IMG/VR virus record: IMGVR_UViG_3300019124_000103
Span: 1 to 64,000 of that record
From: a virus
DNA length: 64,000 nucleotides
Strand: one strand, 5' to 3'
A model generated the notes under the pieces. That model saw only the letters and a program-made list of their open reading frames with translations, was not told the origin of the DNA and searched no databases. A program made the position numbers and the translations under genes. Positions 11,637 through 59,763 of this stretch are shown piece after piece; position 1 is the first letter of the stretch; the number at the start of each line of letters is the position of its first letter.

Positions 11637-11644
11637 CCGTCAAC

Positions 11645-17260: not shown

Positions 17261-17286
17261 CATTTGGGCTCACGCCCAAGCCGAAT

Positions 17287-17354: not shown

Positions 17355-17391
17355 TTACCTCAGTTGCGGAACCCGAAAGGGAAGCGACGCT

Positions 17392-45089: not shown

Positions 45090-45362
45090 TCATCCCTCCC
45101 CCCGTTCAAGGTGGGCGTCTATGGCGGCGTCTAGTCCTACGTCGCTGGTGTCGGTCGTGTCGAACGTAGCTAGCAACACCTCCATACGCTCCCAGCGCAG
45201 CCAGCGATACCGCCTTGCATCAGCCTCGGCTTTGCACAGCTTCGCGGCCAAATCCTCTGCGTGCTGCACCGCCCCTCGGAGCAGGTTCCGTTCGGCCTCC
45301 ACCTGGGCCTCGGCTGCTGCCAGCTTCTCCCGTAGGGATGCGATCTCTGTGGTGCTGCTCAT
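45090..45362 (-). CDS. Hypothetical early protein
   Basis: Shorter allele of the C-terminal part of 1271..2107. Confidence 0.7.
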   Translation of the reverse strand: MSSTTEIASLREKLAAAEAQVEAERNLLRGAVQHAEDLAAKLCKAEADARRYRWLRWERMEVLLATFDTTDTSDVGLDAAIDAHLERGEG

Positions 45363-45604
45363 GGGTGATCCCTCGTCTGGTCTGGGCGCGCCACTCCGTG
45401 GCCGGGCTCTGCGGGCTCCGCCCCAAGCCGCTGCGCGTCTTGGCCTTCGGCTCCGATCCCTCGCGCTTCCCGTAGCGGGGACGAAAGCCCATGACGCCGT
45501 AGATAGTCCGTTGCCCGCCTAATTGCTTGGTTTTGCGCGTCGTGCTTCTTGAGGTGATGGCATAGCACGCGCACCAGCATGGCAAGTTCAGCCGTGTCGG
45601 TCAT
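45359..45604 (-). CDS. Hypothetical protein
   Basis: AAGGAG RBS; ELAMLVRVL...ATDYLRRHGLSSPLR. Confidence 0.65.
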   Translation of the reverse strand: MTDTAELAMLVRVLCHHLKKHDAQNQAIRRATDYLRRHGLSSPLREARGIGAEGQDAQRLGAEPAEPGHGVARPDQTRDHP

Positions 45605-45824
45605 CTGGCACTCCTTGGGTATTCGGCTCATAAGGCGAGCGAAGCCGTACAACGTCCGCTTGGTCAACCAGCAAAGCCGGCGCGCGGTCAAAGTCAACGT
45701 CGCACCACCGGAGGTCTCGAATGCTTGAATCGACTTGACCGCCGATGAAGGCTGGCCCGTTGACCAGCACTTGCAACACCGCCTTGCCGCCGAGCCCGCG
45801 GCGCACTCTGTATCGGTTCACCAT
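45588..45824 (-). CDS. Hypothetical protein
   Basis: GGAGG RBS; YRVRRGLGGKAVLQV...W.D. Confidence 0.55.
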   Translation of the reverse strand: MVNRYRVRRGLGGKAVLQVLVNGPAFIGGQVDSSIRDLRWCDVDFDRAPALLVDQADVVRLRSPYEPNTQGVPDDRHG

Positions 45825-46417
45825 TTCGCCTCCGGGGCGTTGGCTTGCTCGGTTATGCGCGATTGGATGACGGCGGCCGGCGGCGGGTCTGGAAGCTCTC
45901 GCCAGCAGGCAATCGCCCCTTCGGGGACTAGCCCTGCGCAACAGAACCAAGCCACGCCGTTCCACCAGCCGACAAGACGCCCACCGTCCCAGCGGTGGCA
46001 CAGAACCTCGCGCAGGTCTGCCGGCTTCAGCTCGTTGGCCCAGTTCCATACATCTCTCGTCCAGAGCGCGCAGTTCATGCGCAGCACCGATCCTGGCGGA
46101 CAACTGCAACGCTCGCCGCCAATGCACAGCCCTGATGGGTCGTTCTTGCATTGCTCCCGGCATGCCGAATCACCGCACGGGTGTGTGCAGGCCGCGCCAG
46201 CGATAGGAGCGGACGCCGCGTCAGCGGCTGGAGCGGATAGCGCGGTCCCCGAAGGGGAGGCGCCCTGAACCTGTCCGGCTCCCAAAGGCTGGGAGAGGGA
46301 GGTGCGTAGCTGGCGCAGTTCTTCAAGCGCTTCCAGCACATCCGCATGCCCAAGCTCGGCGAGCAGCCTCTGCGTGCGGACGATCCTGCGAAGGCTCCCT
46401 GTCTTGTCGGTGCTCAT
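45818..46417 (-). CDS. Mosaic hypothetical protein (Cys-rich + DUF551-like tail)
   Basis: N-terminus shared with 2733..3158; C-terminal WRELPDPP. Confidence 0.65.
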   Translation of the reverse strand: MSTDKTGSLRRIVRTQRLLAELGHADVLEALEELRQLRTSLSQPLGAGQVQGASPSGTALSAPAADAASAPIAGAACTHPCGDSACREQCKNDPSGLCIGGERCSCPPGSVLRMNCALWTRDVWNWANELKPADLREVLCHRWDGGRLVGWWNGVAWFCCAGLVPEGAIACWRELPDPPPAAVIQSRITEQANAPEAKW

Positions 46418-46635
46418 TTGGGGGCTCCTGCGTCTGCGGCCCGCTCGGCTTCGAGACTTCTTCGTATCTGGTCCCGAAGCGCTTCTCTACACCCGGCCAA
46501 CTTGGCGCGGTTGTCTTGGGCCGCGAACTTCCACCGCCCGCTGTCCACCTGCGTCTCGACCAGTTCCAGCCATAGATCAGCGTCCATTGCTGCCGCTAAA
46601 AGCGTGGTCGGCTTTCCGTCTGCCCACCTGCTCAC
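46414..46635 (-). CDS. Hypothetical protein
   Basis: Coupled overlaps on both sides. Confidence 0.6.
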   Translation of the reverse strand: MSRWADGKPTTLLAAAMDADLWLELVETQVDSGRWKFAAQDNRAKLAGCREALRDQIRRSLEAERAADAGAPK

Positions 46636-47291
46636 ACCCCACCCCCTTGTGCGCCAGAGAGGCGTCGCTCAGTGGCGCGGACTATCCAATAGTCCAGCGA
46701 ATCGCTGGGCATGATTTGCTGGCCCCGCGGACCGCTGGCGCACTGACGGAACAGCACGCGGGCATGCGTCAGCACCTCTTCCACCTGGTCGTCCGTCAAC
46801 GCCTCCTGCCCCTGCGCCGAGGGCGGCTGTGCGGGTGCTGTGGGGGTGACGCAAGAGCAGTTCACGATGTCGCTCGCGCTGCGAATTGCGGTGCCTTCCC
46901 AGAGGCAGCCGACGGCGTGTTTCGCCACTGCCGGCTGCTCTGCCTGCTCGGGCACTGAGGGGGCGGCGTCAATCAGGCGCAGCACCTCGCGCTCGATGCG
47001 GCGGATCGTCTCTTTCGCCCAGCCGAACTCCGAGCGCATGGCGAGCACCTGCTCATCCGTCAGTGCTGCGGGTGCCTGCTTACCCTCCCATTCGCGCCAC
47101 TTTGCGGCGTGCGCCAGGGATTCACGCAGCACGGGGATCGTGTCAACGCCAACAGGCGGTGCTGCGGGTGCCTGCTCGGTGGTGGCGAGGGCGACGCGCG
47201 CTCCACCCATTGCGACATGAGCCCGCTCCAGGTCTTTTGCGTCAAGCGCTGCCAGCAGTTCGCGCAGCGCCTCTCTCGTGGCGTCGGTCAT
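46632..47291 (-). CDS. Mosaic early hypothetical protein
   Basis: Shares blocks with 3155..3997. Confidence 0.75.
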   Translation of the reverse strand: MTDATREALRELLAALDAKDLERAHVAMGGARVALATTEQAPAAPPVGVDTIPVLRESLAHAAKWREWEGKQAPAALTDEQVLAMRSEFGWAKETIRRIEREVLRLIDAAPSVPEQAEQPAVAKHAVGCLWEGTAIRSASDIVNCSCVTPTAPAQPPSAQGQEALTDDQVEEVLTHARVLFRQCASGPRGQQIMPSDSLDYWIVRATERRLSGAQGGGV

Positions 47292-47434
47292 GATGTGTGC
47301 TCCTTCGCCGGCCAGCGCAGCGTTGCGACCAGTGGGCGGCCCTGTTTGTCAAACGCGCCGGGGTACAGCTTCGCAAGCGCGGCCAGGTCTGCGCGGGCCT
47401 GGCGCTGGATGCGGAGGATGTCGGCAAGGGTCAC
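47288..47434 (-). CDS. 48-aa hypothetical protein (not in ORF track)
   Basis: Manual translation MTLADILRIQRQARADLAALAKLYPG...EHTS; same slot and end as 3994..4209. Confidence 0.55.
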   Translation of the reverse strand: MTLADILRIQRQARADLAALAKLYPGAFDKQGRPLVATLRWPAKEHTS

Positions 47435-48042
47435 GATGCCTGCTCCTGCTGTTGTGTGGAGAGGGCCAACAAGGCCCGCGCAGCCTGATAGACGTAGGGC
47501 TTCAGGTCGTCGCAGCCCTCTTTGATCGTGAAGCCGTTCGCTAGGAAGACCGCGCGAATCTGCGCATCCGTCAGCCCCTGTGCTGCAGGGGTGGGAGTGG
47601 ATCGGGCGGCAGCTTCACAGTCTTCTTCCGAGACAGTGCCGGCCGCGGCCAGAAGGTCCGCCCACTGCCATTCCTCCTCCTGCATCACGCGCTCCATGGC
47701 GCGGTTCGGGCGAAGCGGCACAAGCGCGAAGCCTGCGGGAATCGCCCCCGCCCCTGCGGGCTGTGGTGCTGGTGGGGTGGTGTAGAGGGGCGTTATGTCC
47801 CGCAGCTTGTCCGGGTAGCCGGGGCACCAGGCGATGCCCTCCGGCTGGTCCTTATCGTGGAAGCCCACCGGTTCTGCTGCCTCCTGCTGGGCGAGGGCGG
47901 CGGACTCGATGAACCGGCGCAGAGTCTCTCGCGGCCCGACCGGGTCCACCGACACATTCATGCGGGCGAAGTCATCGAGCGATTCCAGCGCTTCGAGCGC
48001 CTGCTCTCGGGTGACTGCCAGCGCTTCTCGGTCTTGGGTCAT
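47431..48042 (-). CDS. Mosaic early hypothetical protein
   Basis: Shares blocks with 4206..4739. Confidence 0.75.
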   Translation of the reverse strand: MTQDREALAVTREQALEALESLDDFARMNVSVDPVGPRETLRRFIESAALAQQEAAEPVGFHDKDQPEGIAWCPGYPDKLRDITPLYTTPPAPQPAGAGAIPAGFALVPLRPNRAMERVMQEEEWQWADLLAAAGTVSEEDCEAAARSTPTPAAQGLTDAQIRAVFLANGFTIKEGCDDLKPYVYQAARALLALSTQQQEQAS

Positions 48043-48098
48043 ATGTGGTTTCCCGTGGGAGCTAACCCGGGCCTGCGGCCCTAGGCGTTCTGGAATGT

Positions 48099-48524
48099 TT
48101 AGCCTCGGCCCGCGGCGTTGCTGGGTGTCACCCCATGCATAGCCAGGAACGCCACGGTGTAGTCAATGAGACTGGAGCCTCTCTGCCTGGACATCGCGGC
48201 AGTGCTTTCGCGGATATTCACGAACTCGCCCTCAAGTCCCGGGACGATTTCAGCCCCTTGCTTTGTGGCGGTGGCATGCCCGGAGACAAACAGCACCTTC
48301 CACTGCTCGGCCGTTCTCGGGGCTCCGGCCCAGCACAAGCCGGCCTTTTCGGCGTCCTGGCAGAGCGCGTGAAACTTGGCGTTTTGATCCAGGCTGCGGC
48401 GCTCGGGCTTGACCGTGACTTCCAGTCGATGGCCCTGGAGGGTTTCGCCCTTGATCTGGCTCCATAGGTCGGACCAGACCTTGTATGCCTGCTGTGGGTT
48501 CACTAGCTTCTGGGTGACTTTCAT
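48099..48524 (-). CDS. ninB: NinB/Orf-family protein (second allele)
   Basis: RSLDQNAKFHALC...EQWKVLF...IRESTAAMS. Confidence 0.8.
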   Translation of the reverse strand: MKVTQKLVNPQQAYKVWSDLWSQIKGETLQGHRLEVTVKPERRSLDQNAKFHALCQDAEKAGLCWAGAPRTAEQWKVLFVSGHATATKQGAEIVPGLEGEFVNIRESTAAMSRQRGSSLIDYTVAFLAMHGVTPSNAAGRG

Positions 48525-48850
48525 CGCGTCCTCTTCAGCGTTTCCATGTCCCAGCCTTCCCGCTCGGCCATCTCTTGCATTCGTTCGACGTACTCAGCCT
48601 CTAGCTCTCGTCGCTGATCCCGGCTCATGTCGAGACAGTTGTCGTGCTGCTGATGGCAGCCGATCAACCCGAAGTGAGGGGCGCAGAGGGGGAAAATCTT
48701 GGAGTCGCAAACCTTCATCCCTAGTCCCTTGCCGAAATTCGCGTGGGCTGCTTGGCTGAACCCTTCGATACCGCATCCGAAGCACGGCTTAGAGGCGACG
48801 TACCTTCTATACGCCTCTGACCTCAGTAGCCGTGTCTTCGGGTAGAGCAT
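48521..48850 (-). CDS. Zn-binding DUF968-like protein
   Basis: Near-identical to 5215..5544. Confidence 0.7.
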   Translation of the reverse strand: MLYPKTRLLRSEAYRRYVASKPCFGCGIEGFSQAAHANFGKGLGMKVCDSKIFPLCAPHFGLIGCHQQHDNCLDMSRDQRRELEAEYVERMQEMAEREGWDMETLKRTR

Positions 48851-49125
48851 CAGAAGGGAATGTCGGAACCCTCGTCACGACCGTAGGCGCGCTTCGCCAT
48901 CTCGGTGCCGCCCATCTGGCGCTTTGGCTGCTCGGCCTGCTGTTCCTTGACATTGACCGCAAGAGACATGAACTTGCCCTGTTGACCCGTCTTGATCCAG
49001 GCGGACAACCAGAACTCCACTCCTTCGATGTTGATCGAACCCTTGTAGTCCGGGTGGGTGTCCTTCTCCTTGCGGTCGTTCTTAAAGAGGACGCCGGAGT
49101 TGGTGTTGTCGTATTGCTTGCTCAT
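48850..49125 (-). CDS. Short phage SSB-like protein
   Basis: [11 protein letters not shown]...PDYKG...WLSAW, acidic DIPF tail; occupies the ssb slot. Confidence 0.7.
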
Positions 49126-49793
49126 TACGCTGCCTTTTGCTTTGCGTGGAACTGGATTGAATACGCCTTGATGGCGTTGCGGGTGGATGCGGGCATGAGC
49201 TTGGAAAGGAAGATCTTTTCCAGGTCATCCAGCCCCTCTTGCTCGATGCGCTCGAAAGCCGCTTGGGGGCCGTAGGCTTCAAAGTCGCCCTTGACCGTTT
49301 CCCACAGCTTCAGAAGCTCTTGTTCCCGCACAGCAGGGATGGCCGGGGACTCGTTCAATACGTCGTTCATGACGCCGGTCGGCCGCTTGGTCTGCTTCGG
49401 CGGCTGGCTGGCCGCGTTACCGTCGTCGTCGTCTTGATACAAGCCAACAGCGGCGGCCAGCGAGTAGCGGCGGAGGTATGTGATGGCCGAGCCGTACCCC
49501 TGCGGGTCGTTCTTCGGCAGCGTCACAACCGCCATTGACTCGATCCACTCACCCGACTCGTGAAGCAAACGGGTCGTCAAAGCCAAGGTGCCGGGGTCGC
49601 TTGGGGCCGGTAGTTGAATGAAGGCGACGCCGTTTGCGTTCAGGGCCGGCTTGATCGCGTCGATCACTGCGGGAAGGTCCGCGTACTTGTTGCGGAAGTG
49701 CGGGTTCACCGCATCTTTCGCCGCGAAGGTGATCGCCCCTTGCGCCTTCACTAGCGCCTGGCTGATCTTGCTGATTGATTCGCTGGTTCTCAT
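49125..49793 (-). CDS. erf: ERF-family single-strand annealing protein
   Basis: [35 protein letters not shown]...DDDGN. Confidence 0.93.
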
Positions 49794-49813
49794 ATTCGTA
49801 CTCCTGTGTCCAG

Positions 49814-50014
49814 TCAGGCCCGAGGTTCGCTGCCGGTAGCGGCTTCATAGATCGCCTCCAGCGCCTTCAAGTCATCCGTCGTTGGGTCGGGTTCATACGA
49901 TTCGGGCCATTCGCCGTGTTCCGCGTAGAACTCCTGCGCCGTCATCAGATGGGCTTCCCCACAAGCCCGGCAGAACAGATCCACCGAGCATCCGCAGTAG
50001 GTGCAGTACATCAA
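49814..50014 (-). CDS. Small Zn-ribbon hypothetical protein
   Basis: CTYCG...CRACGE. Confidence 0.6.
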   Translation of the reverse strand: MMYCTYCGCSVDLFCRACGEAHLMTAQEFYAEHGEWPESYEPDPTTDDLKALEAIYEAATGSEPRA

Positions 50015-50259
50015 TGCACCTCGTCGCCGACAACGTGCCTAGACCACCAAGCCACGAGGCGCTGCTTCCAGGTGAGCGGTGCGGGGACATGGCACATACC
50101 CCCGGGCATCTCTCCCCACATGGGCCAGCAGTCACAGGGGCGGCGACCTTGGTTGCAGTTACCACCGCAGCCGAGAACAACGGTCAGGCGCTGGGCGTAC
50201 AGCTCGCGGGTCTTGACGGTTTCGACCATGGCGAAGTGAGCGTTGCGGTCGTTCATCAC
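50011..50259 (-). CDS. Cys-rich hypothetical protein
   Basis: Homolog of 7340..7585. Confidence 0.7.
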   Translation of the reverse strand: MMNDRNAHFAMVETVKTRELYAQRLTVVLGCGGNCNQGRRPCDCWPMWGEMPGGMCHVPAPLTWKQRLVAWWSRHVVGDEVH

Positions 50260-50438
50260 ATCGCTCCCGCCAAGAGAAGAACCGCAAGAACCGCCATCAC
50301 GACAACGCCGACATAGGTCGCTGCTGCGTGGCCCTTGCTGGCGAACACCTCAACAGGCGAGGCGTAGTCAGCGGGGGATTGATAGACCCGATGGGCGCGC
50401 ATCCACGCCTCGGGCGTCTCAGTGAAGTTGCGCTTCAT
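50256..50438 (-). CDS. Small membrane protein
   Basis: Homolog of 7582..7764. Confidence 0.7.
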   Translation of the reverse strand: MKRNFTETPEAWMRAHRVYQSPADYASPVEVFASKGHAAATYVGVVVMAVLAVLLLAGAM

Positions 50439-50650
50439 GCTGTCTCCCAAATCACGCCAACTTGGCGCACGTTGCGTTGCTGATCGATAGCCACCACGTC
50501 CACACCCTGGGACGTGCGCCAGAACTCCAAACGAATCCCCGCCATGTCATCCATGCCTTCGACTTGAAGGGCAGAGAGAAAGAAGGGCCGGGGTGCTTGC
50601 ATTGCCTCGGGTGTGGGGCAGGGCAAGACTGAATCGAGGAGGGCGCTCAC
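50435..50650 (-). CDS. Hypothetical protein
   Basis: Homolog of 7761..7976. Confidence 0.7.
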   Translation of the reverse strand: MSALLDSVLPCPTPEAMQAPRPFFLSALQVEGMDDMAGIRLEFWRTSQGVDVVAIDQQRNVRQVGVIWETA

Positions 50651-50943
50651 ACTGCACCCCCTGGCCGGTCGTCACGTCGGAGGCCGGGATTCGCTTCGCG
50701 GAACTCAGCGAGCGTCTGACGACCGGATTTGTCCAGCAGCGCGCGGCCGACTGCCGTGATGTTGTCTCCGTCAAGCGCACCCCACCCGCGGAGCGTGGCG
50801 CGGCACGTCACAAGGCCACGGGCATCGCCGACCGTCATTGCCTTGAGTGGCTTCCCGTCGCGTGCCGCGAGAAGCACGGCACGATGGCCGCTGTTCATGC
50901 GTGCGCGCATCTGCTTGATGCTTGGCGTGTGCTTCGCTTCCAT
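50647..50943 (-). CDS. Hypothetical protein
   Basis: AKHTP start shared with 7973..8290, remainder unrelated. Confidence 0.6.
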   Translation of the reverse strand: MEAKHTPSIKQMRARMNSGHRAVLLAARDGKPLKAMTVGDARGLVTCRATLRGWGALDGDNITAVGRALLDKSGRQTLAEFREANPGLRRDDRPGGAV

Positions 50944-51275
50944 CACAGCGCAGCCTCCCGAAACTTGGTCTTGCACGAATGGCAGTGCATGACGCGGTTA
51001 AAGCTCGCGGAGATCTCCGCGCAGTCCTCACACGGCTCAGGCTCGGGAGCCGTCAGCACCTTGATCTCGTCTTGGAGGTCTTGCACCGTGTAGAAGGCGC
51101 TGCGGAGCTGTCCGCGCAGCAGGCCCACGAGATAGGCCAGGCGCGCCAGATCGCCGCCGCCCACCTTCGCCACGTAGGCGTCAGCCTGCGCCTCCAGCCG
51201 ATCTAGAACGCGGTCACATGCGCTCTGCTTCTGCTTCCACGGAGCGGGGATCGGGATGTCGGTTTGCATTGCCAT
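50943..51275 (-). CDS. First gene of leftward operon B, Zn-ribbon C-terminus
   Basis: Homolog of 8287..8619. Confidence 0.75.
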   Translation of the reverse strand: MAMQTDIPIPAPWKQKQSACDRVLDRLEAQADAYVAKVGGGDLARLAYLVGLLRGQLRSAFYTVQDLQDEIKVLTAPEPEPCEDCAEISASFNRVMHCHSCKTKFREAAL

Positions 51276-51299
51276 CTCTCCTGCGAGTCGATGGCTGAA

Positions 51300-51340
51300 C
51301 TATGCAACATGCGCAGTCACAAGGCAAGCAGAATGCATAG
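51300..51340. promoter_or_regulatory. oL operators of unit B (CTATGC-N5-GCATAG-like)
   Basis: CTATGCAACATGCGCAG (51300) and GCAAGCAGAATGCATAG (51324), 24-bp spacing. Confidence 0.75.
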
Positions 51341-51405
51341 CCAGAAGACAAATTAGAGTGGCGCCTCTAATTCCGTGTGACTACAGTCGGAGGCGGAGGT
51401 GAGGG

Positions 51406-51903
51406 ATGAGGAAAACGATTTCCGCGGCTGTGGTCGCGGCGATGGTGGCCGGGTGCGCGACTACCCCCGAGCACTACAGGCAGAACAAGGCGGGCTTATC
51501 TGATCTGGAGGTGTGCCGCGCTTCCCGGGCCGCAATGAATGCCGCGGATTGGTCTTGGCACAGCGAAACAATGGAAGATATGGCCGCTCGGGGCCTTACT
51601 GCCGCGTCGTGCGTCGAGCTAGTAGCCGAGGCGGAGCAGAAAGCCAAAACGGTTGGGGCGATCGTCCTGGGAGTCGCCGCACTCGCGTTGATCGCTTCGC
51701 AGGCCAAGAAGGGCAGGATTGGTGGATCGCAGGCCACCGGCCAAGACTTTGACTGGGACTGGGATCTTTTCTACGGCGAGCGCATGCAGATGGTGTGGGC
51801 CTGCCGTGGCGTGCAAACGGGGCAATTCGCGGAGCCTTATAGATGTCAGCACAAGGCCCAAACCGACTTGCGGTGGCCGGGCTTGCAAGCGCCTTGGCGC
51901 TGA
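51406..51903 (+). CDS. Lipoprotein moron
   Basis: GGAGG RBS, lipobox VAGC, internal TM, WDWD...WACR...GQF..C domain. Confidence 0.8.
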   Translation: MRKTISAAVVAAMVAGCATTPEHYRQNKAGLSDLEVCRASRAAMNAADWSWHSETMEDMAARGLTAASCVELVAEAEQKAKTVGAIVLGVAALALIASQAKKGRIGGSQATGQDFDWDWDLFYGERMQMVWACRGVQTGQFAEPYRCQHKAQTDLRWPGLQAPWR

Positions 51904-52145
51904 TGGCCGCGGCCGGGCAGTCCAGCGCTTCTGCACGCTCCCCCGCAGTCAAAGCAGAGTTCCGCCGCCTGAACCCCTGCCCGAGCACCGGGAAGACGAG
52001 AGGCGCCTGTCCGGGCTATCACGTCGATCACCGGGAAAGCCTCATCTGCGGTGGCAAAGACGAGGTGTCGAACCTGCAATGGCTATCGATCCCCGAGCAC
52101 AAAGAGAAAACCCGCGTCGAGGTGAAGCTGTGCCGCTCGCGGTAG
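51873..52145 (+). CDS. Small HNH-like protein with putative signal peptide (start uncertain)
   Basis: ASALALMAAAG...RSPAVKAEFRRLNPCPSTG...VDHRESLICGG...NLQW. Confidence 0.7.
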   Translation: MAGLASALALMAAAGQSSASARSPAVKAEFRRLNPCPSTGKTRGACPGYHVDHRESLICGGKDEVSNLQWLSIPEHKEKTRVEVKLCRSR

Positions 52146-52270
52146 ATCGTTACGACCGCTCACGAATTGGGGCGCTTTCACCCCTTAATCTTGGGGTTGA
52201 CGCCTCGGACCTAGTACACGATTGGGCGTCGATAGAAGACTCGCCCGGCCCTGTGGCTCACGCGGTGAGC

Positions 52271-52295
52271 TAGCGTACTGGATACATTTACAGTA
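52271..52295 (+). promoter_or_regulatory. LexA box (and putative -10) of SpoIIAA-like gene B
   Basis: TACTGGATACATTTACAGTA (52276-52295), close to the TACTG(TA)5CAGTA consensus; TAGCGT immediately upstream. Confidence 0.82.
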
Positions 52296-52321
52296 CAACA
52301 AAGTGAGTGGGCATGAGCGGT

Positions 52322-52750
52322 ATGGACGAGTTTGAAATCACCCGGCGCGGCGGGATGCTCATCGTGCAGGTGGGCGGCTTCTTTACGGTGGAGAAGGCCG
52401 ATGAACTTCGGCAGCGCATCCTGGCGGACCTTCGGCAGGCCAACGCTGTGAAGTGCCTCATTGATCTGCGGCGGTGCGTCTTGGTCATGGGCGAGGCCCA
52501 AATCGACCAGATGGCGGAAGCCGAGCTGGCGAGCGGGCTGGAGGTGGCGACTGGTGTTCTTGCCAGCGAACCGCAGCGGGAGCTGGTCAAGCGCTACGCA
52601 AAGCGCATGGGCGCGACCGGCAGAACCCGCCTGGTCTTCACCGATGCTTCGCGGTCTTTGTGGGAGTGGCTGGGGGGAGTGGTTCCGGAGCTTCTTCCTG
52701 CTCGACAGTTCGAAGTCGGTGCTCGTCCTCAATCTCAAAAGCAACACTAG
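52322..52750 (+). CDS. SpoIIAA/STAS-SEC14-like protein, candidate SOS-inducible antirepressor B
   Basis: RGGMLIVQVGGFFT...KCLIDLRR...GRTRLVFTD...WLGG; homolog of 10307..10738; overlaps cI 3' end. Confidence 0.72.
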   Translation: MDEFEITRRGGMLIVQVGGFFTVEKADELRQRILADLRQANAVKCLIDLRRCVLVMGEAQIDQMAEAELASGLEVATGVLASEPQRELVKRYAKRMGATGRTRLVFTDASRSLWEWLGGVVPELLPARQFEVGARPQSQKQH

Positions 52751-53087
52751 CGCACTGCGCTATGGCGATCCGCTTCAGTAGCGGGTCTTCGATGTTGTTC
52801 AGCCGTCGCGCGATTTCCATGATCTCGGGCGGCAGTGCTGGCGCGCCGTCAACCTCAAGCGGCTGATCCATCCAGCCGACAGGCTTTTGCATCTTGGCTT
52901 CCAGCTTGGTAGCCAACTCGTCGCCTACATTCCGGCGCCCTTTGGACATCGCGATCAGATGCGTGTCCACCGTATTGCATAGGGCGGCGAGCTTCTGCGG
53001 CCCGCCCGCTTCAGCAAGAAGCATCTTTAGCCGCTCGCGCCTCCACGCGCGATAGGGCCTCTCGTCCCGTTCTCCATCCTCCGTCAT
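52638..53087 (-). CDS. cI: Phage repressor B (HTH, no S24 peptidase domain)
   Basis: RRERLKMLL...RNVGDELATKLE...GWMD repressor N-domain; C-terminus homologous to repressor A. Confidence 0.85.
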   Translation of the reverse strand: MTEDGERDERPYRAWRRERLKMLLAEAGGPQKLAALCNTVDTHLIAMSKGRRNVGDELATKLEAKMQKPVGWMDQPLEVDGAPALPPEIMEIARRLNNIEDPLLKRIAIAQCASVAFEIEDEHRLRTVEQEEAPEPLPPATPTKTAKHR

Positions 53088-53097
53088 GCCGGCAAGC

Positions 53098-53162
53098 CTA
53101 CGCGACTTGCATAAGGGCAGACTATGCGTTATGCTCAGTCCAGCACTGCGCAACTTGCATAG
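53098..53162. promoter_or_regulatory. oR1-3 operators of unit B
   Basis: Three 17-mers at 53098, 53122, 53146 (exact 24-bp period) matching the oL motif. Confidence 0.8.
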
Positions 53163-53167
53163 TCCAA

Positions 53168-53527
53168 ATGGAACTTCGAGCATACCTAGACACCCTTCCT
53201 CGTGGAGGCGTGGCCGAGTTCGCGGGCAAGTGCGGCATTTCTGAGGTTTACCTGCACCAGCTTGCTGCCCGCCAGGGCCGGAGACAGGCGAGCCCTGCGC
53301 TCGCGGTAGTTATCGAGCGGGAGAGCGGCGGAATGGTCAAGCGCGCGGATCTGCGGCCTGACGACTACAGCCAGATTTGGCCCGACCTCAAGAAGCCCGC
53401 TGCCTCGAAGAAAGCCGACGCCCCCGCGGCCAGCACAGAACCCCGCATCCCTGCGGCCGATCACCACGTCTGGCCGCTCCCCACTGACCGCCGCATCACC
53501 AAGCGTGACGGTCCTTCCAAGGAGTGA
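53168..53527 (+). CDS. cro: Cro/YdaS-like HTH protein B
   Basis: MELRAYL...FAGKCGIS..YL.Q...IERESGG.V...DLRPDD..IWPDL. Confidence 0.85.
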   Translation: MELRAYLDTLPRGGVAEFAGKCGISEVYLHQLAARQGRRQASPALAVVIERESGGMVKRADLRPDDYSQIWPDLKKPAASKKADAPAASTEPRIPAADHHVWPLPTDRRITKRDGPSKE

Positions 53528-53530
53528 GCG

Positions 53531-53956
53531 ATGAAGCTCCCCAGCGAGGATTTCGACGACTCCCGGGCTAGGCGGCTGTACCCGCCGCGAGACGGCATCT
53601 ACCGCCACTGGTTTTGCGACTACCAGCCCATCGTCGAGTCGTTCGGCGATGTGCTCGTGCAAGTTGATGACAACGACTATTCGGGTGATACGCGCGTCCT
53701 TCTGAAGAGTGGCGGGCGCTTCGGCTTCCTCAACTTCGGCTGGGGATCGTGCAGCGGTTGCGATGCGCTTCAGTCGTGCAACAGCTATCGCGCTGTTGAG
53801 GAACTCATCCAGGGGTTGGAGCGCGACATCAAGTGGTTTGACAACCTCCAGGACGCAAAAGACTACATCGCCAGCCCCGACCGCAAATCGTCCTACTACT
53901 GGCACGAGAGCGAATGGAAAAGCTTTGTTGACCAAGTTCTTGCCCTGGAGACCTGA
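53531..53956 (+). CDS. Hypothetical protein inserted after cro
   Basis: AAGGAG RBS; DYSG...GWGSCSGCD motif; absent from unit A. Confidence 0.7.
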   Translation: MKLPSEDFDDSRARRLYPPRDGIYRHWFCDYQPIVESFGDVLVQVDDNDYSGDTRVLLKSGGRFGFLNFGWGSCSGCDALQSCNSYRAVEELIQGLERDIKWFDNLQDAKDYIASPDRKSSYYWHESEWKSFVDQVLALET

Positions 53957-53957
53957 C

Positions 53958-54143
53958 ATGCGTGATCTAGACGCCCTCGACCCTCTGCCGAAGCTCGGTG
54001 CCAAGGTGGAGCCGCTGAACGACAAGCCGCTGACCGAACGCCAGAAGCAAGCACTTCGCACATACGTCTTCGAGCGGTCGCGCTGGTACGACATCGCGCC
54101 GTTGCAAGAAACCTTCGCCCGCCAGTACCCGGCCGGCAAGTAA
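53958..54143 (+). CDS. Hypothetical protein
   Basis: Near-identical to 11445..11636. Confidence 0.7.
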   Translation: MRDLDALDPLPKLGAKVEPLNDKPLTERQKQALRTYVFERSRWYDIAPLQETFARQYPAGK

Positions 54144-54151
54144 CCGTCAAC

Positions 54152-54294
54152 GCCCGAGCCATGCACCCCCTTCAGCTTTCTGGGCAGTTCACCCGCATGT
54201 GCTCGGGCACCTTTTTCACCACGCGCCGGCAGTCGATGCTGGTCCGTTCCCCCTCCTCCTGCCCTCCCTGCTTCGGGCCGGCTGGGGCGCGTGG
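54152..54294 (+). ncRNA. Candidate structured RNA element upstream of cII-like gene B
   Basis: Same closing stems as 11645..11802. Confidence 0.45.
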
Positions 54295-54332
54295 TTCCTT
54301 CATTCATCACTGACCTACCAGGAGAAGTCCTC

Positions 54333-54704
54333 ATGCGAGACATCGTGACCTCAACTTCGCGTCAACGCGAGGAATGCGCAGAGAAGCCGCGGAAACCGCT
54401 GCACTACATGCACCCCGACGACCTGCGTTATTCAGCGCTTCAGGACTGCATTGCAGAGGCGATTTTGCATTCGCGCTTCACGCAGCAGGCCCTGGCCCGA
54501 CGCATAGGTGTGAGCGAGTCCCATCTGTCGAAGGTCATCAACGGCCAAGCCGGTTTGCACGGCGAGGCGCTGGTGGCGTTCTGCAAAGAGACGCGCTCGG
54601 TTGCCTTGTGGCAGTGGTACTCAATGCGGATATCCGAAGCATTGCAAGCCGAGGGCGTGCAGTTCCCGCCGCTGATGGCGGCTGCTTCCCCTCGTTTGCA
54701 ATGA
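54333..54704 (+). CDS. CII-like HTH regulator B
   Basis: TQQALARRIGVSESHLSKVING HTH; cII position. Confidence 0.65.
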   Translation: MRDIVTSTSRQREECAEKPRKPLHYMHPDDLRYSALQDCIAEAILHSRFTQQALARRIGVSESHLSKVINGQAGLHGEALVAFCKETRSVALWQWYSMRISEALQAEGVQFPPLMAAASPRLQ

Positions 54705-54880
54705 GCCGCACGCCGGGTAGGGAGGAAAGCTGTGATGGAAAACAGAGATTCGACACACAAGCGCTTGCCCGGCGCATGGCTGAACGGCTCAACCGCAAAG
54801 GTGGACGTGTTCACGTTTACCGCTGCGTGCTTTGCGCTGGCTTTCATTTGGGCAGCGTCGGAAAGGTGAGGAAACCATGA
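54701..54880 (+). CDS. Small Zn-finger protein
   Basis: Copy of 12170..12349. Confidence 0.7.
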   Translation: MSRTPGREESCDGKQRFDTQALARRMAERLNRKGGRVHVYRCVLCAGFHLGSVGKVRKP

Positions 54881-55284
54881 GCGTCTGGCGCCCGATCCTC
54901 ACCAACTTGCACGAGCTGGGCCGCCCGGCCCCTCTGCGGGATTGGGACGACTTCCGCTTCTCGGCAACGTCCGTGAAAGCTGCTGTCGAGGATCTGTTGC
55001 GCCTCGGCCTGATCCAGCGTGACGGCTTGATCGGCAAGCACGTGGTCTACCGCATCACGTCGCTGGGCACTCAGTTCTGCCAGGGCCGCGTGATCGCAGT
55101 TCGTGGCCGCAAACACGACCCGCTGTGGAGGAAGTACCTCAACAGCAACCACAAGACCCGCCAGCGTGCCAAGGCGTTCCAGAGCGGGAACCTGAAGACG
55201 CACTTTTGTGCGACGTGGCTGGCTGCGCTGCCCACAACGTATCCACAGCATTTCCCCGCTGTGTTCTCTTCCGCCCTCGCTTAG
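54877..55284 (+). CDS. Winged-helix-like hypothetical protein
   Basis: Identical to 12346..12753. Confidence 0.7.
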   Translation: MSVWRPILTNLHELGRPAPLRDWDDFRFSATSVKAAVEDLLRLGLIQRDGLIGKHVVYRITSLGTQFCQGRVIAVRGRKHDPLWRKYLNSNHKTRQRAKAFQSGNLKTHFCATWLAALPTTYPQHFPAVFSSALA

Positions 55285-55301
55285 GCCGGCTGACCATAGC
55301 C

Positions 55302-55421
55302 ATGTCTAAGCAAGCCCTCTACGTACTCATGAAGAACGAGTTCTTGAATCAGAACCCGAACGCGACGCCGGAACAGATCGAGTCGTTCTGTAAAGAACTG
55401 GCTAAGGAGTTGGGTCTGTGA
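55302..55421 (+). CDS. Small hypothetical protein
   Basis: Copy of 12771..12890. Confidence 0.65.
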   Translation: MSKQALYVLMKNEFLNQNPNATPEQIESFCKELAKELGL

Positions 55422-56179
55422 GGGACTACGGCAAGGTTCATTCCCAGTTTTGGGCCAGCTCCACCATCGCCGCATTGAGCGATGACGGCAAGTTGTTGGC
55501 GCTCTATCTCATGACCTGCCAGCACAACACGATTGCTGGCGTCTTCCGTCTTCCTGATGGCTATGCCGCCGAGGATCTTGGCTGGTCGCCTGAAAGGGTT
55601 CGGGAAGGGTTTGCGGAACTGTCACGGAACGGTTTCGCTAACCGTTGCGAAACGACGAAATGGGTCTGGATCATCAAGCATCTGGACTGGAATCCGCCAG
55701 AGAACCCGAACCAGCGCAAGGCGGCCTTGAAGTGCTCCAGCCAAGTCCCCGAAAACTGTGATTGGAGGGCTCGTTTCCTAGGTGAGGCGACCCAAAAGCT
55801 GATCGACAGCGACTCCGCCGCGGCGAACCCTTCCGCAACCCTTCCGAAACCCTTGCCTAACCAGGAACAGGAACAGGAACAGAAACAGGATAAGAAGGCG
55901 CCTCGGGCTTTGCCCTCCGCACTCACCGTCGATGACCTCAAGGCCGAAGGCGTCAGCGAAGAGGCTGCATACGCCTTCCTGGCGATTCGGAAGCGAAAGA
56001 GGGCGCCGCTGTCCCAGCTCGCATGGGCGGGGATCAAGCGCGAAGCCGGAAAGGCAGGGTGGGGCCTTGATGCCGCTGTGCGGAAGGCAGCCGAGCGTGG
56101 GTGGCAATCCTTCGAGGCCGAGTGGGTTCGCAACGAGCCGCCAACGGACGGCGGCAGCAAGTGGGCGGGGGCGATATGA
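55418..56179 (+). CDS. Replication initiator (O-like) B
   Basis: MRDYGKVHSQFW...LALYLMT; C-terminus near-identical to initiator A. Confidence 0.8.
   Translation: MRDYGKVHSQFWASSTIAALSDDGKLLALYLMTCQHNTIAGVFRLPDGYAAEDLGWSPERVREGFAELSRNGFANRCETTKWVWIIKHLDWNPPENPNQRKAALKCSSQVPENCDWRARFLGEATQKLIDSDSAAANPSATLPKPLPNQEQEQEQKQDKKAPRALPSALTVDDLKAEGVSEEAAYAFLAIRKRKRAPLSQLAWAGIKREAGKAGWGLDAAVRKAAERGWQSFEAEWVRNEPPTDGGSKWAGAI
55826..55862. repeat. Putative origin iterons B (AACCCTT x3)
   Basis: AACCCTTccgcAACCCTTccgaAACCCTT; inverted AAGGGTT pair near 55594-55611. Confidence 0.55.
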
Positions 56180-57458
56180 AGGGCCACGAACCGTTGTTCG
56201 CCATGCGCCTGCAGGGCTGGGCTCCCAAGGACGTTCACATCGACACCAGCCCGTCGAAGCTCTGGCGCGAATGGCAGGTGTGGAGCCCGGATCACGCACA
56301 CCTCGTCGTGGAGCCGTCCGATTCGGTTCGCCTGCTTGACCTTCGCTGCGTTGTCGGCCTGCTGGTCTTCGTCAACGGCAGCAGCCATGAGCGAGTGGCC
56401 GAGGTGATCGAGGCGGCGAAGAAGGCCGGCGCTCGCCGAGTGGTCGGGTTTGTCCATCCCGGACGACTCCCCGAGGAAATCCAGATTCTCGACACCGAAG
56501 GGGCGCTGCAATGAACATCATCACCCCGGACACCATCGATTTCTCGCTGTACCTGCGGGAGACGGAAGCCGCGCAGAAGGTGCGCGCGGCGAGCGATTAC
56601 GTCCAAGACCTGATCGCATCCCTCGGAAAGAAGCGCCAGGAGCCACGCTCATACCTGCCCTGGGACAAGACCCACAAGCTGTTCCAGCTCCGACCAGGAG
56701 AGGTGACCTTGTGGGCGGGCGTCAACGGCCACGGCAAGAGCTTGGTGACGGGCCAGCTAGCAGCAAGCCTCGTGACCCAATCCGAGCGGGTGTGCATCGC
56801 CAGCTTCGAGATGAAGCCGAGGAAGACCCTGGAGCGGATGGTGCGCCAGTGGGGCGGGGATGCCCCTGAGGAGGAATGGGACGGCGCAGACCTGTCGGGT
56901 TACCGGGACGTTTACGAGCAGTTCGGCGCCTGGACGACTGACAAGCTCTGGCTCTATGACCAACAGGGCACGGTCAACACCGACACGGTGATTGCGGTCA
57001 TCCGCTACTGCGCGAAAGAACTCGGCATCAAGCACTTCTTCCTCGATAGCTTGATGAAGTGCGTGAAGGGCGAGGACGACTACAACGGGCAGAAAGCCCT
57101 GGTCGATGAGTTGACCGCCATCGCTCGGGACTACGCGATGCACGTCCATCTGATCCATCACCTGCGGAAGCTGGAGACGGAAGGAAAGATGCCCGACAAG
57201 TCCGACATCAAGGGGACCGGGGCAATCACCGATCAGGTGGACAACGTGATGTTGGTGTGGCGGAACAAGCAGAAAGAGCTTGAGCTTCAAAAGACCAACA
57301 ACAAGGTTCAGGACACGGAGCCCGACGCGGCGCTTCTGTGCCGGAAACAGCGCAACGGCGAGTGGGAAGGGACCGTGCAACTGTGGTTCCACAAGGGCTC
57401 TCAGCAGTTCGTGGAGAGCCCGCACGCCGATTCCATGACCCTCTACAACTGGCCGCAC
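55861..57458. repeat. Near-identical long repeat of ~13608..15205
   Basis: Initiator C-terminus, hypothetical gene and helicase differ by only a few residues. Confidence 0.9.
56176..56514 (+). CDS. Hypothetical protein
   Basis: Copy of 13923..14261. Confidence 0.7.
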   Translation: MKGHEPLFAMRLQGWAPKDVHIDTSPSKLWREWQVWSPDHAHLVVEPSDSVRLLDLRCVVGLLVFVNGSSHERVAEVIEAAKKAGARRVVGFVHPGRLPEEIQILDTEGALQ

Positions 57459-57464
57459 AGGTGA
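56511..57464 (+). CDS. DnaB/T7 gp4-like SF4 helicase
   Basis: Same motifs as 14258..15211. Confidence 0.92.
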   Translation: MNIITPDTIDFSLYLRETEAAQKVRAASDYVQDLIASLGKKRQEPRSYLPWDKTHKLFQLRPGEVTLWAGVNGHGKSLVTGQLAASLVTQSERVCIASFEMKPRKTLERMVRQWGGDAPEEEWDGADLSGYRDVYEQFGAWTTDKLWLYDQQGTVNTDTVIAVIRYCAKELGIKHFFLDSLMKCVKGEDDYNGQKALVDELTAIARDYAMHVHLIHHLRKLETEGKMPDKSDIKGTGAITDQVDNVMLVWRNKQKELELQKTNNKVQDTEPDAALLCRKQRNGEWEGTVQLWFHKGSQQFVESPHADSMTLYNWPHR

Positions 57465-57468
57465 GCGC

Positions 57469-58212
57469 ATGAAGAAATCCGGTCTTTGGGATGCTGTCTT
57501 AGCTGGGGCTGCCCGGCCTGAAGGGATTGGCCAATATGAGTTGCTGGACTTCGGTCTGCGCAAGGTGGCCGATGCGTTCTACCGACTGAAGAGGCTTAAA
57601 AAAATCTTCAAGGTAGGGGTTCGCAAGGACACCCGGGCATTCATCCGCCAAGAGGACGCGGATGCTTATCGGGAGAAGCTGAAGGCCCGCTACCTGGAGC
57701 GCAAGCGCAATTGGGACCGCAACCACCGCAAGCCGTACCAGCGTGTTCCCCGTGTCACCCAAGGGGAGCGCATCCTCGCCGCGGCTTCTCAGCAGGGTGG
57801 ATGTAGCCCGTATGACTTCCCGGACCTGACGGCCGCGCAAGTCCGGGACTCGGCACGTCACCTGGCAGAAGCGGGAAAGCTCTACGTCGCCGGGAATCGA
57901 CAACTGCGCCGCTTCTTCGCTGACCCGGCCGAAGCGATGGTCTACGAGGCGAGCATTCCGAAGCTCAAGAAGGAAAAGAAGCGCGAGAACAACCGCAAGC
58001 GGGCCAAGGTCGTGCGGCAGAAGGTCGCTAAGGCGCCGAAGTCACCAAAACCGCCGAAGCCGCCAGCAGTCCGTGCGGTCCACATCCCGAAGTATGTCGG
58101 CCCGAAGTGGGAAGACGACGCCCCGGCGATCATCCCCGACCACGTCAAGGTGCAGGTGATCCCGAGCCCCCCGGCGTTTGGGTTGGCTGCGAAGTACGGG
58201 ATTCGGACATGA
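57469..58212 (+). CDS. Basic hypothetical protein (two wHTH-like repeats)
   Basis: Lys/Arg-rich; C-terminal IIPDHVKVQVIPS. Confidence 0.7.
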   Translation: MKKSGLWDAVLAGAARPEGIGQYELLDFGLRKVADAFYRLKRLKKIFKVGVRKDTRAFIRQEDADAYREKLKARYLERKRNWDRNHRKPYQRVPRVTQGERILAAASQQGGCSPYDFPDLTAAQVRDSARHLAEAGKLYVAGNRQLRRFFADPAEAMVYEASIPKLKKEKKRENNRKRAKVVRQKVAKAPKSPKPPKPPAVRAVHIPKYVGPKWEDDAPAIIPDHVKVQVIPSPPAFGLAAKYGIRT

Positions 58213-58307
58213 GCCGCTTCATGAAAACCGTCATGTGGTGCCTGTTCGTCTGGGGCGTTCTCGCCTGGGCGGTGATTGAGGCGGTGGAACTCGTGGTGAT
58301 CGCATGA
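58209..58307 (+). CDS. 32-aa hydrophobic peptide
   Basis: Copy of 15731..15829. Confidence 0.6.
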   Translation: MSRFMKTVMWCLFVWGVLAWAVIEAVELVVIA

Positions 58308-58549
58308 CCATTTGCGACGCCTGCCACGAATCAGAGGTTCACGGCCGCCCCATCGCTCCATCCCTGGCCTGTGCTGAGTGCATGTGCAGAAACCTCGCTC
58401 ACAGGTGGGCAGAAGGGAAGGTAGACGCAAAGCACGTAGAGCTGGCGTGCCAGGGGCTGTACGGAGCCAAGTGGGAAGAAGCACACAAGGCGGTGAAGGT
58501 GATGTATCGGCGGATTAAGGAGCGGCATGCGTCGCGCGGCGAGGGTTGA
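58304..58549 (+). CDS. Zn-binding hypothetical protein
   Basis: CDAC...CAEC; ends shared with 15826..16065. Confidence 0.7.
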   Translation: MTICDACHESEVHGRPIAPSLACAECMCRNLAHRWAEGKVDAKHVELACQGLYGAKWEEAHKAVKVMYRRIKERHASRGEG

Positions 58550-58820
58550 CGCCAATCACTCGCTCATCGTCGGAGCGCTGATCCGATGCGGGGCGACGGT
58601 GCAGAGCCTGGCGGCGGTGGGGAGTGGCTGCCCCGATCTTCTGGTTGGCTTCCGTGGGAAGAACTTCGCATTCGAGATCAAGGACGGCTCCAAACCCCCA
58701 GGCGCTCGAAAGCTCACCCCGGATCAAGAGACGTGGCACGCGGCCTGGAAGGGCCAAGTGATCGTAGTGGAGTCGGTAGAGCAGGCGCTCGCCGCAATCG
58801 TGGAGACGAAGGATGAGTGA
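58527..58820 (+). CDS. VRR-NUC-like nuclease / resolvase
   Basis: AARVDANH...GCPDLLVG...EIKDG...LTPDQ. Confidence 0.82.
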   Translation: MRRAARVDANHSLIVGALIRCGATVQSLAAVGSGCPDLLVGFRGKNFAFEIKDGSKPPGARKLTPDQETWHAAWKGQVIVVESVEQALAAIVETKDE

Positions 58821-59139
58821 GATTCAGTTCCCCGAGATTTCCTCCGAAGAACTCCCGATTCAAGGAGGTCCGCTCAAAGGTGCGGCCGGCTGGGGGCCGA
58901 CGATCCAAACCGCGGTTGTCATGCCGGCGCTCGATCGCCAGATCGGAGGCGGGCATTACAAGGACCGCGCCATCCAGCCAATCGAGTACATCCACGCCAA
59001 CGGTTTGCCGTTTATCGAGGGGAGTGTGGTGAAGTACATCACCCGCTGGCGAGACAAAGGCGGGGTGCAAGACCTGGAGAAGATCAAGCACTACGTGGAT
59101 CTGCTGATCGAGCTGGAGCGGCGGAAGGGGAAGGCGTAA
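58813..59139 (+). CDS. DUF3310 (T7 gp1.7-like) protein
   Basis: QIGGGHYK...IQPIEYI...KYITRWRDKGGVQDLEK..HY. Confidence 0.85.
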   Translation: MSEIQFPEISSEELPIQGGPLKGAAGWGPTIQTAVVMPALDRQIGGGHYKDRAIQPIEYIHANGLPFIEGSVVKYITRWRDKGGVQDLEKIKHYVDLLIELERRKGKA

Positions 59140-59564
59140 TGGGCCGCCCCGCGAAGCTGGAGCCCCGGTGGCTGGTTGGGCTGTTGAACCAGTGGGCTCT
59201 GCGGGACGACCGCAACCGCTCGCGGGGGATCGGCTACTACTCGGTGAATCCGATGCTCAAAGACGGCATTCCCGGCCGAGCCAGGAGCTTTGAGCCGACC
59301 GGATTCTGTGAACAGGACTTCACCGACGCCGAGAAAGCCATTGAGGCGCTGGAGCAAAACCACCGATTAGCCGTCGTCCGCTACTTCAAGCCGTGGGCGA
59401 AACACGCCATCGATGGGGAGGTGTCGAGGTCGGATGACACCTGGCTGAGGTGGCTGAAAGAGGCGCTGGCGATCATCGAGGCGGACATGGATCGAAAAAA
59501 AGTGCGCCAAGTGCTTGACACCTACCAGGACGTGCGGTTATTCTGCGCAAATCTGGCAGACTGA
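59139..59564 (+). CDS. Q-like late antiterminator B
   Basis: LLNQWA start, position before late promoter and terminase. Confidence 0.6.
   Translation: MGRPAKLEPRWLVGLLNQWALRDDRNRSRGIGYYSVNPMLKDGIPGRARSFEPTGFCEQDFTDAEKAIEALEQNHRLAVVRYFKPWAKHAIDGEVSRSDDTWLRWLKEALAIIEADMDRKKVRQVLDTYQDVRLFCANLAD
59515..59544 (+). promoter_or_regulatory. Late promoter pR' B
   Basis: TTGACA-18 bp-TATTCT within the 3' end of the Q-like gene. Confidence 0.65.
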
Positions 59565-59580
59565 CCCCTGCCACCTCGAA

Positions 59581-59620
59581 AAAGGCCCCTCGTTCTCACG
59601 GACGCAGGGGCTTTTCTCAT
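59581..59620 (+). terminator. tR'-like terminator B
   Basis: GGCCCCT...AGGGGCTTTTCT. Confidence 0.7.
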
Positions 59621-59642
59621 TTGGGCTCACGCCCAGCCGAAT

Positions 59643-59710
59643 GCCCGGGCCTGATCGCACTGCGTTTCAGACGTACCTTGATCAAGTGGCCGCTTCATGG
59701 CCCGGGCGCC
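59643..59710 (+). ncRNA. Candidate structured RNA in late leader B
   Basis: Identical to 17287..17354. Confidence 0.45.
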
Positions 59711-59763
59711 TATCCGCGCACTAGCGCATCTACGGGCGAACAAGCTCCGCCGCCGGGGGCAAT

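Follow-up and report, generated by a model that had tools for sequence, protein, structure and literature searches.

A STAS-fold protein as a putative SOS-induced antirepressor, encoded antisense to the repressor gene of Burkholderiales-type prophages

Introduction

Prophage induction through LexA-controlled antirepressors has been worked out chiefly in enterobacterial phages. In phage 186, the LexA-repressed antirepressor Tum, a protein of ~140–150 amino acids (aa), acts on a CI repressor without an S24 domain; the tum gene lies at a large distance from cI, and its product in part resembles DinI. In P22-like and N15-like phages, it is an Ant-type protein that inactivates the repressor. The repressors of the Gifsy phages are non-cleavable and are inactivated by small LexA-controlled antirepressors, which also act across heteroimmune phages (PMC3121763). 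Here, we describe a gene module from a 64,000-nucleotide window of viral DNA (positions 1–64,000 of the 82.5-kb IMG/VR provirus record IMGVR_UViG_3300019124_000103), wherein a LexA (SOS) box precedes the gene for a small protein of predicted STAS fold, and this gene converges on, and overlaps with, that of a phage repressor. The module occurs twice in the window, and we refer to the two copies as unit A and unit B and to the small protein as the partner.

We propose the partner of unit B to be a putative SOS-induced antirepressor that would act on the C-terminal domain (C-domain) of the adjoining repressor, aided by head-on transcription into the repressor gene, and assign this reading a probability of roughly one half. 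The principle of a LexA-gated antirepressor is known (186 Tum, Gifsy GfoA/GfhA), whereas both the family of the partner protein and the architecture of the overlap are novel. Three features set the module apart from the known systems: a STAS-fold family unrelated to known antirepressors, a gene position within the immunity region, and an antisense overlap that is conserved. If the proposal holds, the same logic is seen in environmental Burkholderiales-type prophages, via an unrelated, unnamed STAS-fold family.

Results and discussion

Two units of identical layout

In unit B, the LexA box (TACTGGATACATTTACAGTA, 52276–52295), which matches both the consensus and a weight matrix, is followed on the plus strand by the partner gene (52322–52750; alternative starts at 52313 and 52307), encoding the 142-aa putative antirepressor of STAS/SpoIIAA fold. 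On the minus strand, the gene for the 149-aa repressor CI-B (52638–53087) runs from an ATG at 53087 to a stop codon at 52638–52640. The two genes thereby share a convergent overlap of 113 bp (52638–52750), in which residues 106–142 of the partner are antisense to the last 36 codons of the repressor and its stop. CI-B is composed of a helix-turn-helix (HTH) N-domain, a helical C-domain (approximately residues 81–116) and a low-complexity tail, and contains no S24 domain. Between cI and a divergent cro-like HTH gene (53168–53527, plus strand; phrog_35, E 3.7e-15) lies a switch region (53098–53161) with two copies of CGCnACTTGCATA (53098–53113 and 53146–53161). The HTH of this cro-like gene is of the YdaS_toxin type, at an E-value of 1e-5 that is under the Pfam cut-off.

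Unit A (10279–11075) is a diverged copy of unit B with the identical layout: a LexA box (GTCTGGATACAAAAACAGTG, 10279–10298, core 10281–10296), a partner gene for 143 aa (10307–10738, plus strand), a repressor gene (CI-A, ~152 aa with an uncertain start; 10617–11075, minus strand) that overlaps with the partner gene by 122 bp, a switch region (11027–11126) and a divergent cro-like HTH gene (11120–11422, plus strand; phrog_4268, E 3.7e-6). Operator-like repeats fill the intergenic regions of both units and differ between them, with unit A carrying three copies of GGnCAnnnnTGTCCA in place of the two repeats of unit B. Divergent genes for an HTH repressor and a cro-like protein, both with PHROG matches, thus flank repeated operators, as is characteristic of lambda-type CI/Cro switches.

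A first-pass annotation of this DNA had reported the box, the 142-aa gene, and the 113-bp overlap of unit B, along with C-domain strings of the two repressors, and these coordinates and strings all proved correct. It had also described unit B as the second, diverged copy of a module whose two CI proteins have different HTH domains and operators yet related C-domains. Our comparisons bear this out: the partners are 41% identical (142 aa, E 3e-29), and the repressors align solely over their C-terminal 61 aa (38% identity, E 5e-8), their N-domains being 15% identical.

Two further features of the unit B region may be mentioned. The palindrome TAGCGCACTGCGCTA (52748–52762) lies within cI and spans the stop codon of the partner gene; read in the direction of cI, a T-rich stretch comes next, so that the palindrome resembles a terminator which, if active, would make cI transcripts stop short of the repressor tail. 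A search of positions 51500–53600 against Rfam returned no match.

LexA boxes upstream of the partner genes

The unit B box is the single match in the window to the 20-mer LexA consensus at up to three mismatches, and none was obtained in 100 shuffles (0/100); the loose core CTG-N10-CAG is not enriched in the window (26 observed vs 25.8 expected). The closest relatives of a replication protein encoded by the prophage come from Burkholderiales genomes (such as Janthinobacterium, Caldimonas, Methyloversatilis and Comamonas), and we built a LexA weight matrix from ten sites in the lexA promoters of five of these genomes, in all of which lexA was located above the curated cut-off. Each of the five promoters carries tandem boxes, in four cases with a CTGG left half-site and an A/T-rich spacer like the boxes of the window, and the unit B box shares the CTGGAT...ACAG type with boxes in the lexA promoters of related genomes. 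What the first-pass annotation had called a near-consensus SOS box thus belongs to the box type present at the lexA gene of the likely host clade itself.

By this matrix, no site in the window scores higher than the unit B box (21.0 bits); the unit A box comes second, at 17.2 bits, and the next site has 10.3 bits, as compared to 11.8–27.2 bits for the training sites. Since the best matches across 50 shuffles averaged 12.4 bits and reached a maximum of 18.1 bits, the unit B box lies above all shuffles and the unit A box below the best of them. The stronger argument for the boxes is their position: the two top-scoring sites each lie directly 5′ of homologous genes.

We compared the window units with six external members of the family, giving eight loci in total: L083 (the same locus as L013) and L103 from two Burkholderiales-family genomes, and L094, L095, L096 and L097 from IMG/VR. 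A LexA box was found in units A and B and in L097 (14.1 bits), and in these three it is kept despite diverging flanks; the upstream DNA of L097 is homologous to that of unit A. The family is accordingly tied to repressors at every locus examined, and to LexA only in a subset.

One candidate box was dropped. An exact match to CTGT-N8-ACAG is present in both prophages (54730–54745 and 12199–12214), but as it is inside a small Cys-rich open reading frame (ORF), is richer in G/C than the true boxes and scores low, we regard it as probably due to chance.

In most loci, the DNA 40–200 bp 5′ of the partner gene contains an inverted repeat conforming to GGCTCA(C)-N3-7-(G)TGAGC, although the DNA around it cannot be aligned. 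In unit B, it reads GGCTCAC-GCG-GTGAGC and lies directly 5′ of the LexA box (52255–52270); variants are present in unit A (10247–10262), L103 (1240–1256), L095 (~2941–2957), L083 (~1301–1315) and L096 (~2933–2950). Elsewhere in the window, there is one site with a single mismatch only (45625). The repeat is not a LexA box, is not accompanied by a T-run and matches no Rfam family. Separately, a terminator-like hairpin precedes the unit in A, L096 and L097, resembling the arrangement described for Gifsy (PMC3121763); none was seen in B.

The partner belongs to a conserved family with a predicted STAS fold

An exhaustive profile search recovered 73 cluster representatives of the partner family at E≤1e-3, 26 of them at E≤1e-10 and nearly all 120–170 aa in length. 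The 20 representatives that we looked up came from metagenome assemblies as singletons or pairs and carried no name beyond 'hypothetical protein', and the longer members (P0030, P0034, P0054 and others) offered no informative fusion. Partner proteins matched no PHROG and no Pfam family, and nothing meaningful in NCBIfam. At curated Pfam thresholds, the family does not fall into the STAS clan and the window copy has no match; among 41 family members, four match PF11964 (SpoIIAA-like) weakly (best E 0.0014), two STAS_2 and one STAS.

The structure prediction is more telling. Based on an alignment of 41 rows, AlphaFold2 modeled partner B at a predicted local distance difference test score (pLDDT) of 94.2 and a predicted template modeling score (pTM) of 0.84, as opposed to a poor model (pLDDT 49.8) from a two-row alignment. 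The model contains the beta-alpha repeats and the four-stranded sheet of the STAS fold, and its best Foldseek matches in the PDB are chains of SpoIIAA, RsbS and RsbV, together with a DUF3478-family protein (best E 7.5e-6, probability 1.0; 20 matches at E≤1e-3). The SpoIIAA chains 1thn_B and 1th8_B were matched at E ~8e-6, with a probability of 1.0 and TM scores of 0.53–0.64, and a profile search against PDB sequences likewise returned SpoIIAA, albeit weakly (E 0.005) and over the first 46 residues. The earlier label 'SpoIIAA-like' is thus well founded in the model. As predicted, the STAS fold of the partner is that of a protein-binding module.

That the partner gene might be a chance ORF was considered and rejected given the family of 73 representatives, the confident fold and the codon-position GC content: outside the overlap, the GC content of third codon positions (GC3) in partner B is 82% and that of second positions (GC2) 41%, as in coding DNA of such composition. 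In the family alignment, D48 and W116 are invariant (41/41), R50, G100, R103 and F106 are conserved in 38–40 of the 41 members, and a C-terminal L-x-P-x-R-x-F-x-P tail extends past the fold in 24–29 of them.

The similarity to SpoIIAA and RsbV does not extend to the hallmarks of partner switching. At residue 57, which we equate with the SpoIIAA phosphorylation site based on the profile alignment and on SpoIIAA numbering, the 41 sequences have T (10), S (10), G (9) or another residue (12), and both window copies have G. A phosphorylatable residue after strand 3 is hence present in 20 of 41 members and a serine there is not conserved. A kinase of the SpoIIAB/RsbW type (HATPase_c_2, PF13581) had no match in the 82.5-kb record. 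Since the phospho-serine is unconserved and the record holds no kinase, the partner is not a classical partner-switching protein; it shares the predicted fold of SpoIIAA/RsbV but neither their conserved serine nor, within the record, a kinase/phosphatase, and unlike theirs, its genes reside in a phage immunity region.

These data bear on a first rival explanation, namely that the partner gene is a moron: an SOS-induced accessory gene with a host target, such as a partner-switching or STAS-binding protein, which sits beside cI since this slot tolerates cargo. Such a view would fit the usual partners of STAS domains, which are kinases, ATPases and transporters, as well as the distant STAS-like relatives (L084–L093), which are chromosomal and have no adjoining repressor; the genes 5′ of the partner, moreover, are variable cargo. 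The missing SpoIIAB/RsbW-type kinase and the unconserved phosphorylation site argue against it, as do two properties of the overlap and of the repressors: a cargo gene would not be expected to hold one overlap phase in all eight loci, nor to co-segregate with one type of repressor C-domain across at least four HTH types. On balance, we consider a moron unlikely.

Repressors without a cleavage domain

In accordance with the first-pass annotation, which had termed the repressors non-cleavable, Peptidase_S24 was found neither in CI-B and CI-A, the repressors of L083 and L094–L097 and the protein P0075, nor across the six frames of the 82.5-kb record, while control genomes do match. The domains ANT, Bro-N and pRha were likewise absent from the six frames of the record, and no other induction route is visible in it.

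CI-B matches phrog_12107 ('transcriptional repressor', E 5.1e-10) and no Pfam family, with weak matches to the HTH of the 434 repressor. Among the related repressors, two score above Pfam thresholds, that of L095 for Phage_CI_repr and another for HTH_3. What most loci share (six of the eight, with L083 as a weak seventh, on one count) is the helical C-domain, described by the motif L-S-P-E-x-x-R-I-A ... D-P ... A-x-x-x-C-E-x-x-A-F with variations, which is clear in B, A, L094, L095, L096, L097 and L103 and weak in L083. Past this domain, the repressors end in a disordered, low-complexity tail of ~30 aa rich in Pro, Glu, Ala and Thr.

With regard to described systems, the match of the L095 repressor to Phage_CI_repr, the 186-type HTH, is a point of likeness to phage 186; the window repressors, however, miss that family, and their C-domain (~36 aa) is far shorter than the C-domain of 186 CI. 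Ant-type systems of P22-like and N15-like phages follow the same logic as proposed here, but ANT, Bro-N and pRha are absent, and size and fold of the partner differ. With GfoA/GfhA of Gifsy-1 and Gifsy-3 and their repressors GfoR/GfhR, the shared logic is that of an uncleaved repressor and a small LexA-controlled protein made upon DNA damage (PMC3121763). The partner gene differs in adjoining and convergently overlapping cI, and its product in having a predicted STAS fold and no relation at the PHROG or Pfam level.

An antisense overlap of fixed phase

All eight loci show a family gene in convergent, overlapping arrangement with the gene of an HTH repressor that adjoins a divergent cro-like gene. 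The overlaps measure 65, 86, 98, 113, 113, 122, 152 and 215 bp, all of them 2 mod 3. At four loci, the repressor stop falls across the conserved F/L-T/I pair of the partner's reading frame—in unit B, this stop (TCA on the plus strand) straddles the codons for F106 and T107—and at three further loci it is no more than ~4 codons away from the conserved R-x-x-F-T strand of the partner, making seven of eight in total. Because the antisense overlap with cI is held in one phase in 8/8 loci, the sensor is tied to its presumed target.

Both frames change in composition over the overlap. GC3 of the partner frame drops from 70–86% outside to 49–60% inside, and that of the repressor frame falls to 46–70%, a pattern that fits constraint on both frames but that could also arise from the fixed phase alone. 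The few conserved letters of the repressor tail mirror the partner's conserved W-L-G and its tail motif. We read the partner's conserved C-terminus as the driver, with the overlapped tail of the repressor as its passenger. As the tail looks like a passenger, is of low complexity and ends in a stop within or beside the F-T codons, the retention of both frames does not provide independent evidence of dual selection. Synonymous sites in the overlap are saturated, given that the closest pair is 41–43% identical in protein. The earlier claim that selection acts on the overlap hence stands insofar as the architecture is kept in 8/8 loci and at 2 mod 3 despite strong divergence, and is weakened with respect to independent selection on both frames.

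The same architecture invites a second rival explanation, a switch at the RNA level, in which the LexA-gated transcript runs antisense through cI and acts by transcriptional interference or as antisense RNA, the STAS protein being auxiliary or unrelated. The convergent, overlapping gene pair of all eight loci, whose orientation is kept even without a LexA box, would be in line with such a device, and no terminator was found on the plus strand between partner and cI. Yet a pure RNA device would have no need for a strongly conserved protein with invariant residues, a confident fold and the C-terminal L-x-P-x-R-x-F-x-P motif, and interference alone would leave DNA-bound repressor in place. We therefore rate this explanation as somewhat less plausible still than the moron.

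A third rival retains the repressor as the target and would have the partner hand it over to a host protease, or otherwise destabilize it, rather than sequester it stoichiometrically. The disordered ~30-aa repressor tail and the partner's conserved linear C-terminal motif could be taken to suggest this, as in adaptor/degron systems; the repressor tail, however, looks like a by-product of the overlap, and we deem a protease adaptor improbable.

Exchange of DNA-binding domains

The HTH domains of the loci are of at least four unrelated types. Conversely, L083 and L097 have HTH domains that are 70% identical, whereas their partners are only 23% and their C-domains 22% identical. Across seven loci, partner identity does not follow HTH identity (r −0.19). 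The first-pass annotation had proposed that C-domain and partner form a unit that is independent of the immunity type. The independence from immunity type is supported, in that the HTH is swapped (L083/L097); the cohesion of the unit is less certain, with a weak correlation in a small sample and linkage sufficing as an explanation (see below).

A model for induction and its weak points

Together, these observations suggest the following scenario, wherein units B and A would each serve as the induction module of a temperate Burkholderiales-type phage with a non-self-cleaving repressor. In the lysogen, host LexA bound to the box at 52276–52295 would keep the partner gene off. Upon DNA damage, LexA would be removed and the 142-aa STAS-fold protein produced. 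This protein would in turn inactivate the repressor, and its most likely binding site is the short helical C-domain of the latter, which co-segregates with the partner. Inactivation of the repressor would release the cro-side promoter. At the same time, transcription of the partner gene would proceed head-on into and through cI and so reduce the synthesis of new repressor, an obvious second lever given the conserved antisense overlap. We infer LexA control in vivo, binding between the two proteins, the C-domain as its target and the contribution of convergent transcription. Prediction of a complex of CI-B with the partner (score 0.00, mark 0.32) counts neither for nor against binding.

Several observations weigh against the partner being an antirepressor under SOS control. 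A recognizable LexA box is absent from five of the eight loci (L083, L094, L095, L096 and L103; ≤5.2 bits), including L083, even though a box of this type is present at lexA of its host genome G001, so that SOS control is not family-wide. A search for sigma-70-like promoters near the box gave no site in 52000–53400. The partner has no homology at the PHROG or Pfam level to known antirepressor families (Tum, GfoA-like, ANT/Bro/Rha), and BFVD holds no phage protein of its fold with a known role. The slot 3′ of cI is, furthermore, a frequent site of accessory genes in lambdoid phages. Finally, the correlation between partner and C-domain identity over seven loci (r 0.53, Mantel p ~0.09) is largely driven by L083, and joint inheritance of the two could be explained by linkage alone, since they are physically adjacent.

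A bolder version of the proposal is conceivable, which we put forward tentatively and hold to be well short of even odds. Here, the STAS protein and the ~36-aa repressor C-domain would constitute a portable induction cassette that is mounted on unrelated HTH domains: a LexA-gated toggle, locked by the antisense overlap, in which head-on transcription and protein antirepression work jointly and in which cross-induction between A and B is possible. The antisense overlap would be hard-wired, with the repressor stop inside the partner's conserved F-T codons. Cross-induction has a precedent in that Gifsy antirepressors act on heteroimmune repressors of co-resident prophages (PMC3121763); for the window, co-residence of the two prophages in one cell rests on the assembly, the record being a metagenome assembly. 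If the cassette exists, its STAS protein would found a new family of antirepressors and would be the first instance known in which the STAS partner-switching fold controls a phage repressor.

Should the partner indeed be an SOS-induced antirepressor, the module would make it possible to recognize SOS-inducible prophages whose repressors are not cleavable and would add a new kind of partner for the STAS fold. It would also offer a natural system to study the separate exchange of immunity (HTH) and induction (C-domain plus partner) specificity, as well as cross-induction of neighboring prophages. If wrong, the family still represents a conserved SOS-linked phage gene without a known role.

Occurrence of the module

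The family is rare. Deposited phages had no tblastn match to partner B, P0012 or P0005, and metagenome scans for the family were likewise negative. A word search with partner B returned only itself, one with CI-B itself and P0075, and one with the C-domain of the L096 repressor only itself. In a family-level sample of Burkholderiales, two of 401 genomes (G001 and G614) matched at E≤1e-8; in a class-wide sample, it was one of 400 scored genomes (one further genome being unscored), namely G001, on which the sample had been centered. An order-level sample yielded matches in nine of 401 genomes at E≤1e-4, but we set these aside as lying outside the module, as all ten loci checked proved to be chromosomal STAS-like genes without a convergent repressor, five of them with stops inside the match. 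Literature searches, as judged from their result listings, brought up nothing on a STAS-fold antirepressor.

The two prophages and their variable genes

Units A and B belong to two related, mosaic prophages within the window, which share sequence between 1271–17355 (A) and 45090–59711 (B). The early region of prophage A (~1.3–17 kb) recurs at ~45–60 kb in blocks of 82–100% identity with unrelated DNA in between; the shared blocks lie at an offset of ~42.5–43.8 kb, and one of them, of 736 bp, is 99.5% identical between the prophages (12168–12903 and 54699–55434).

Upstream of the module, both prophages encode a small protein (51843–52145 and 9011–9412) with a signal-peptide-like N-terminus and weak PHROG matches to HNH endonucleases (E 1e-5), odd for a secreted protein. 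In prophage A only, a gene for an HNH endonuclease (9427/9442–10152; phrog_374, E 1.9e-60) lies between this cargo gene and the partner gene. Immediately 5′ of it is a perfect palindrome, CTGTACACATGTACAG (9417–9436), which scores only 10.3 bits with the lexA-promoter matrix and is at most a candidate for a second SOS box. As another example of variable cargo, the gene 5′ of the module in L097 (2457–2837) resembles, by eye, a toxin of the Doc/Fic type.

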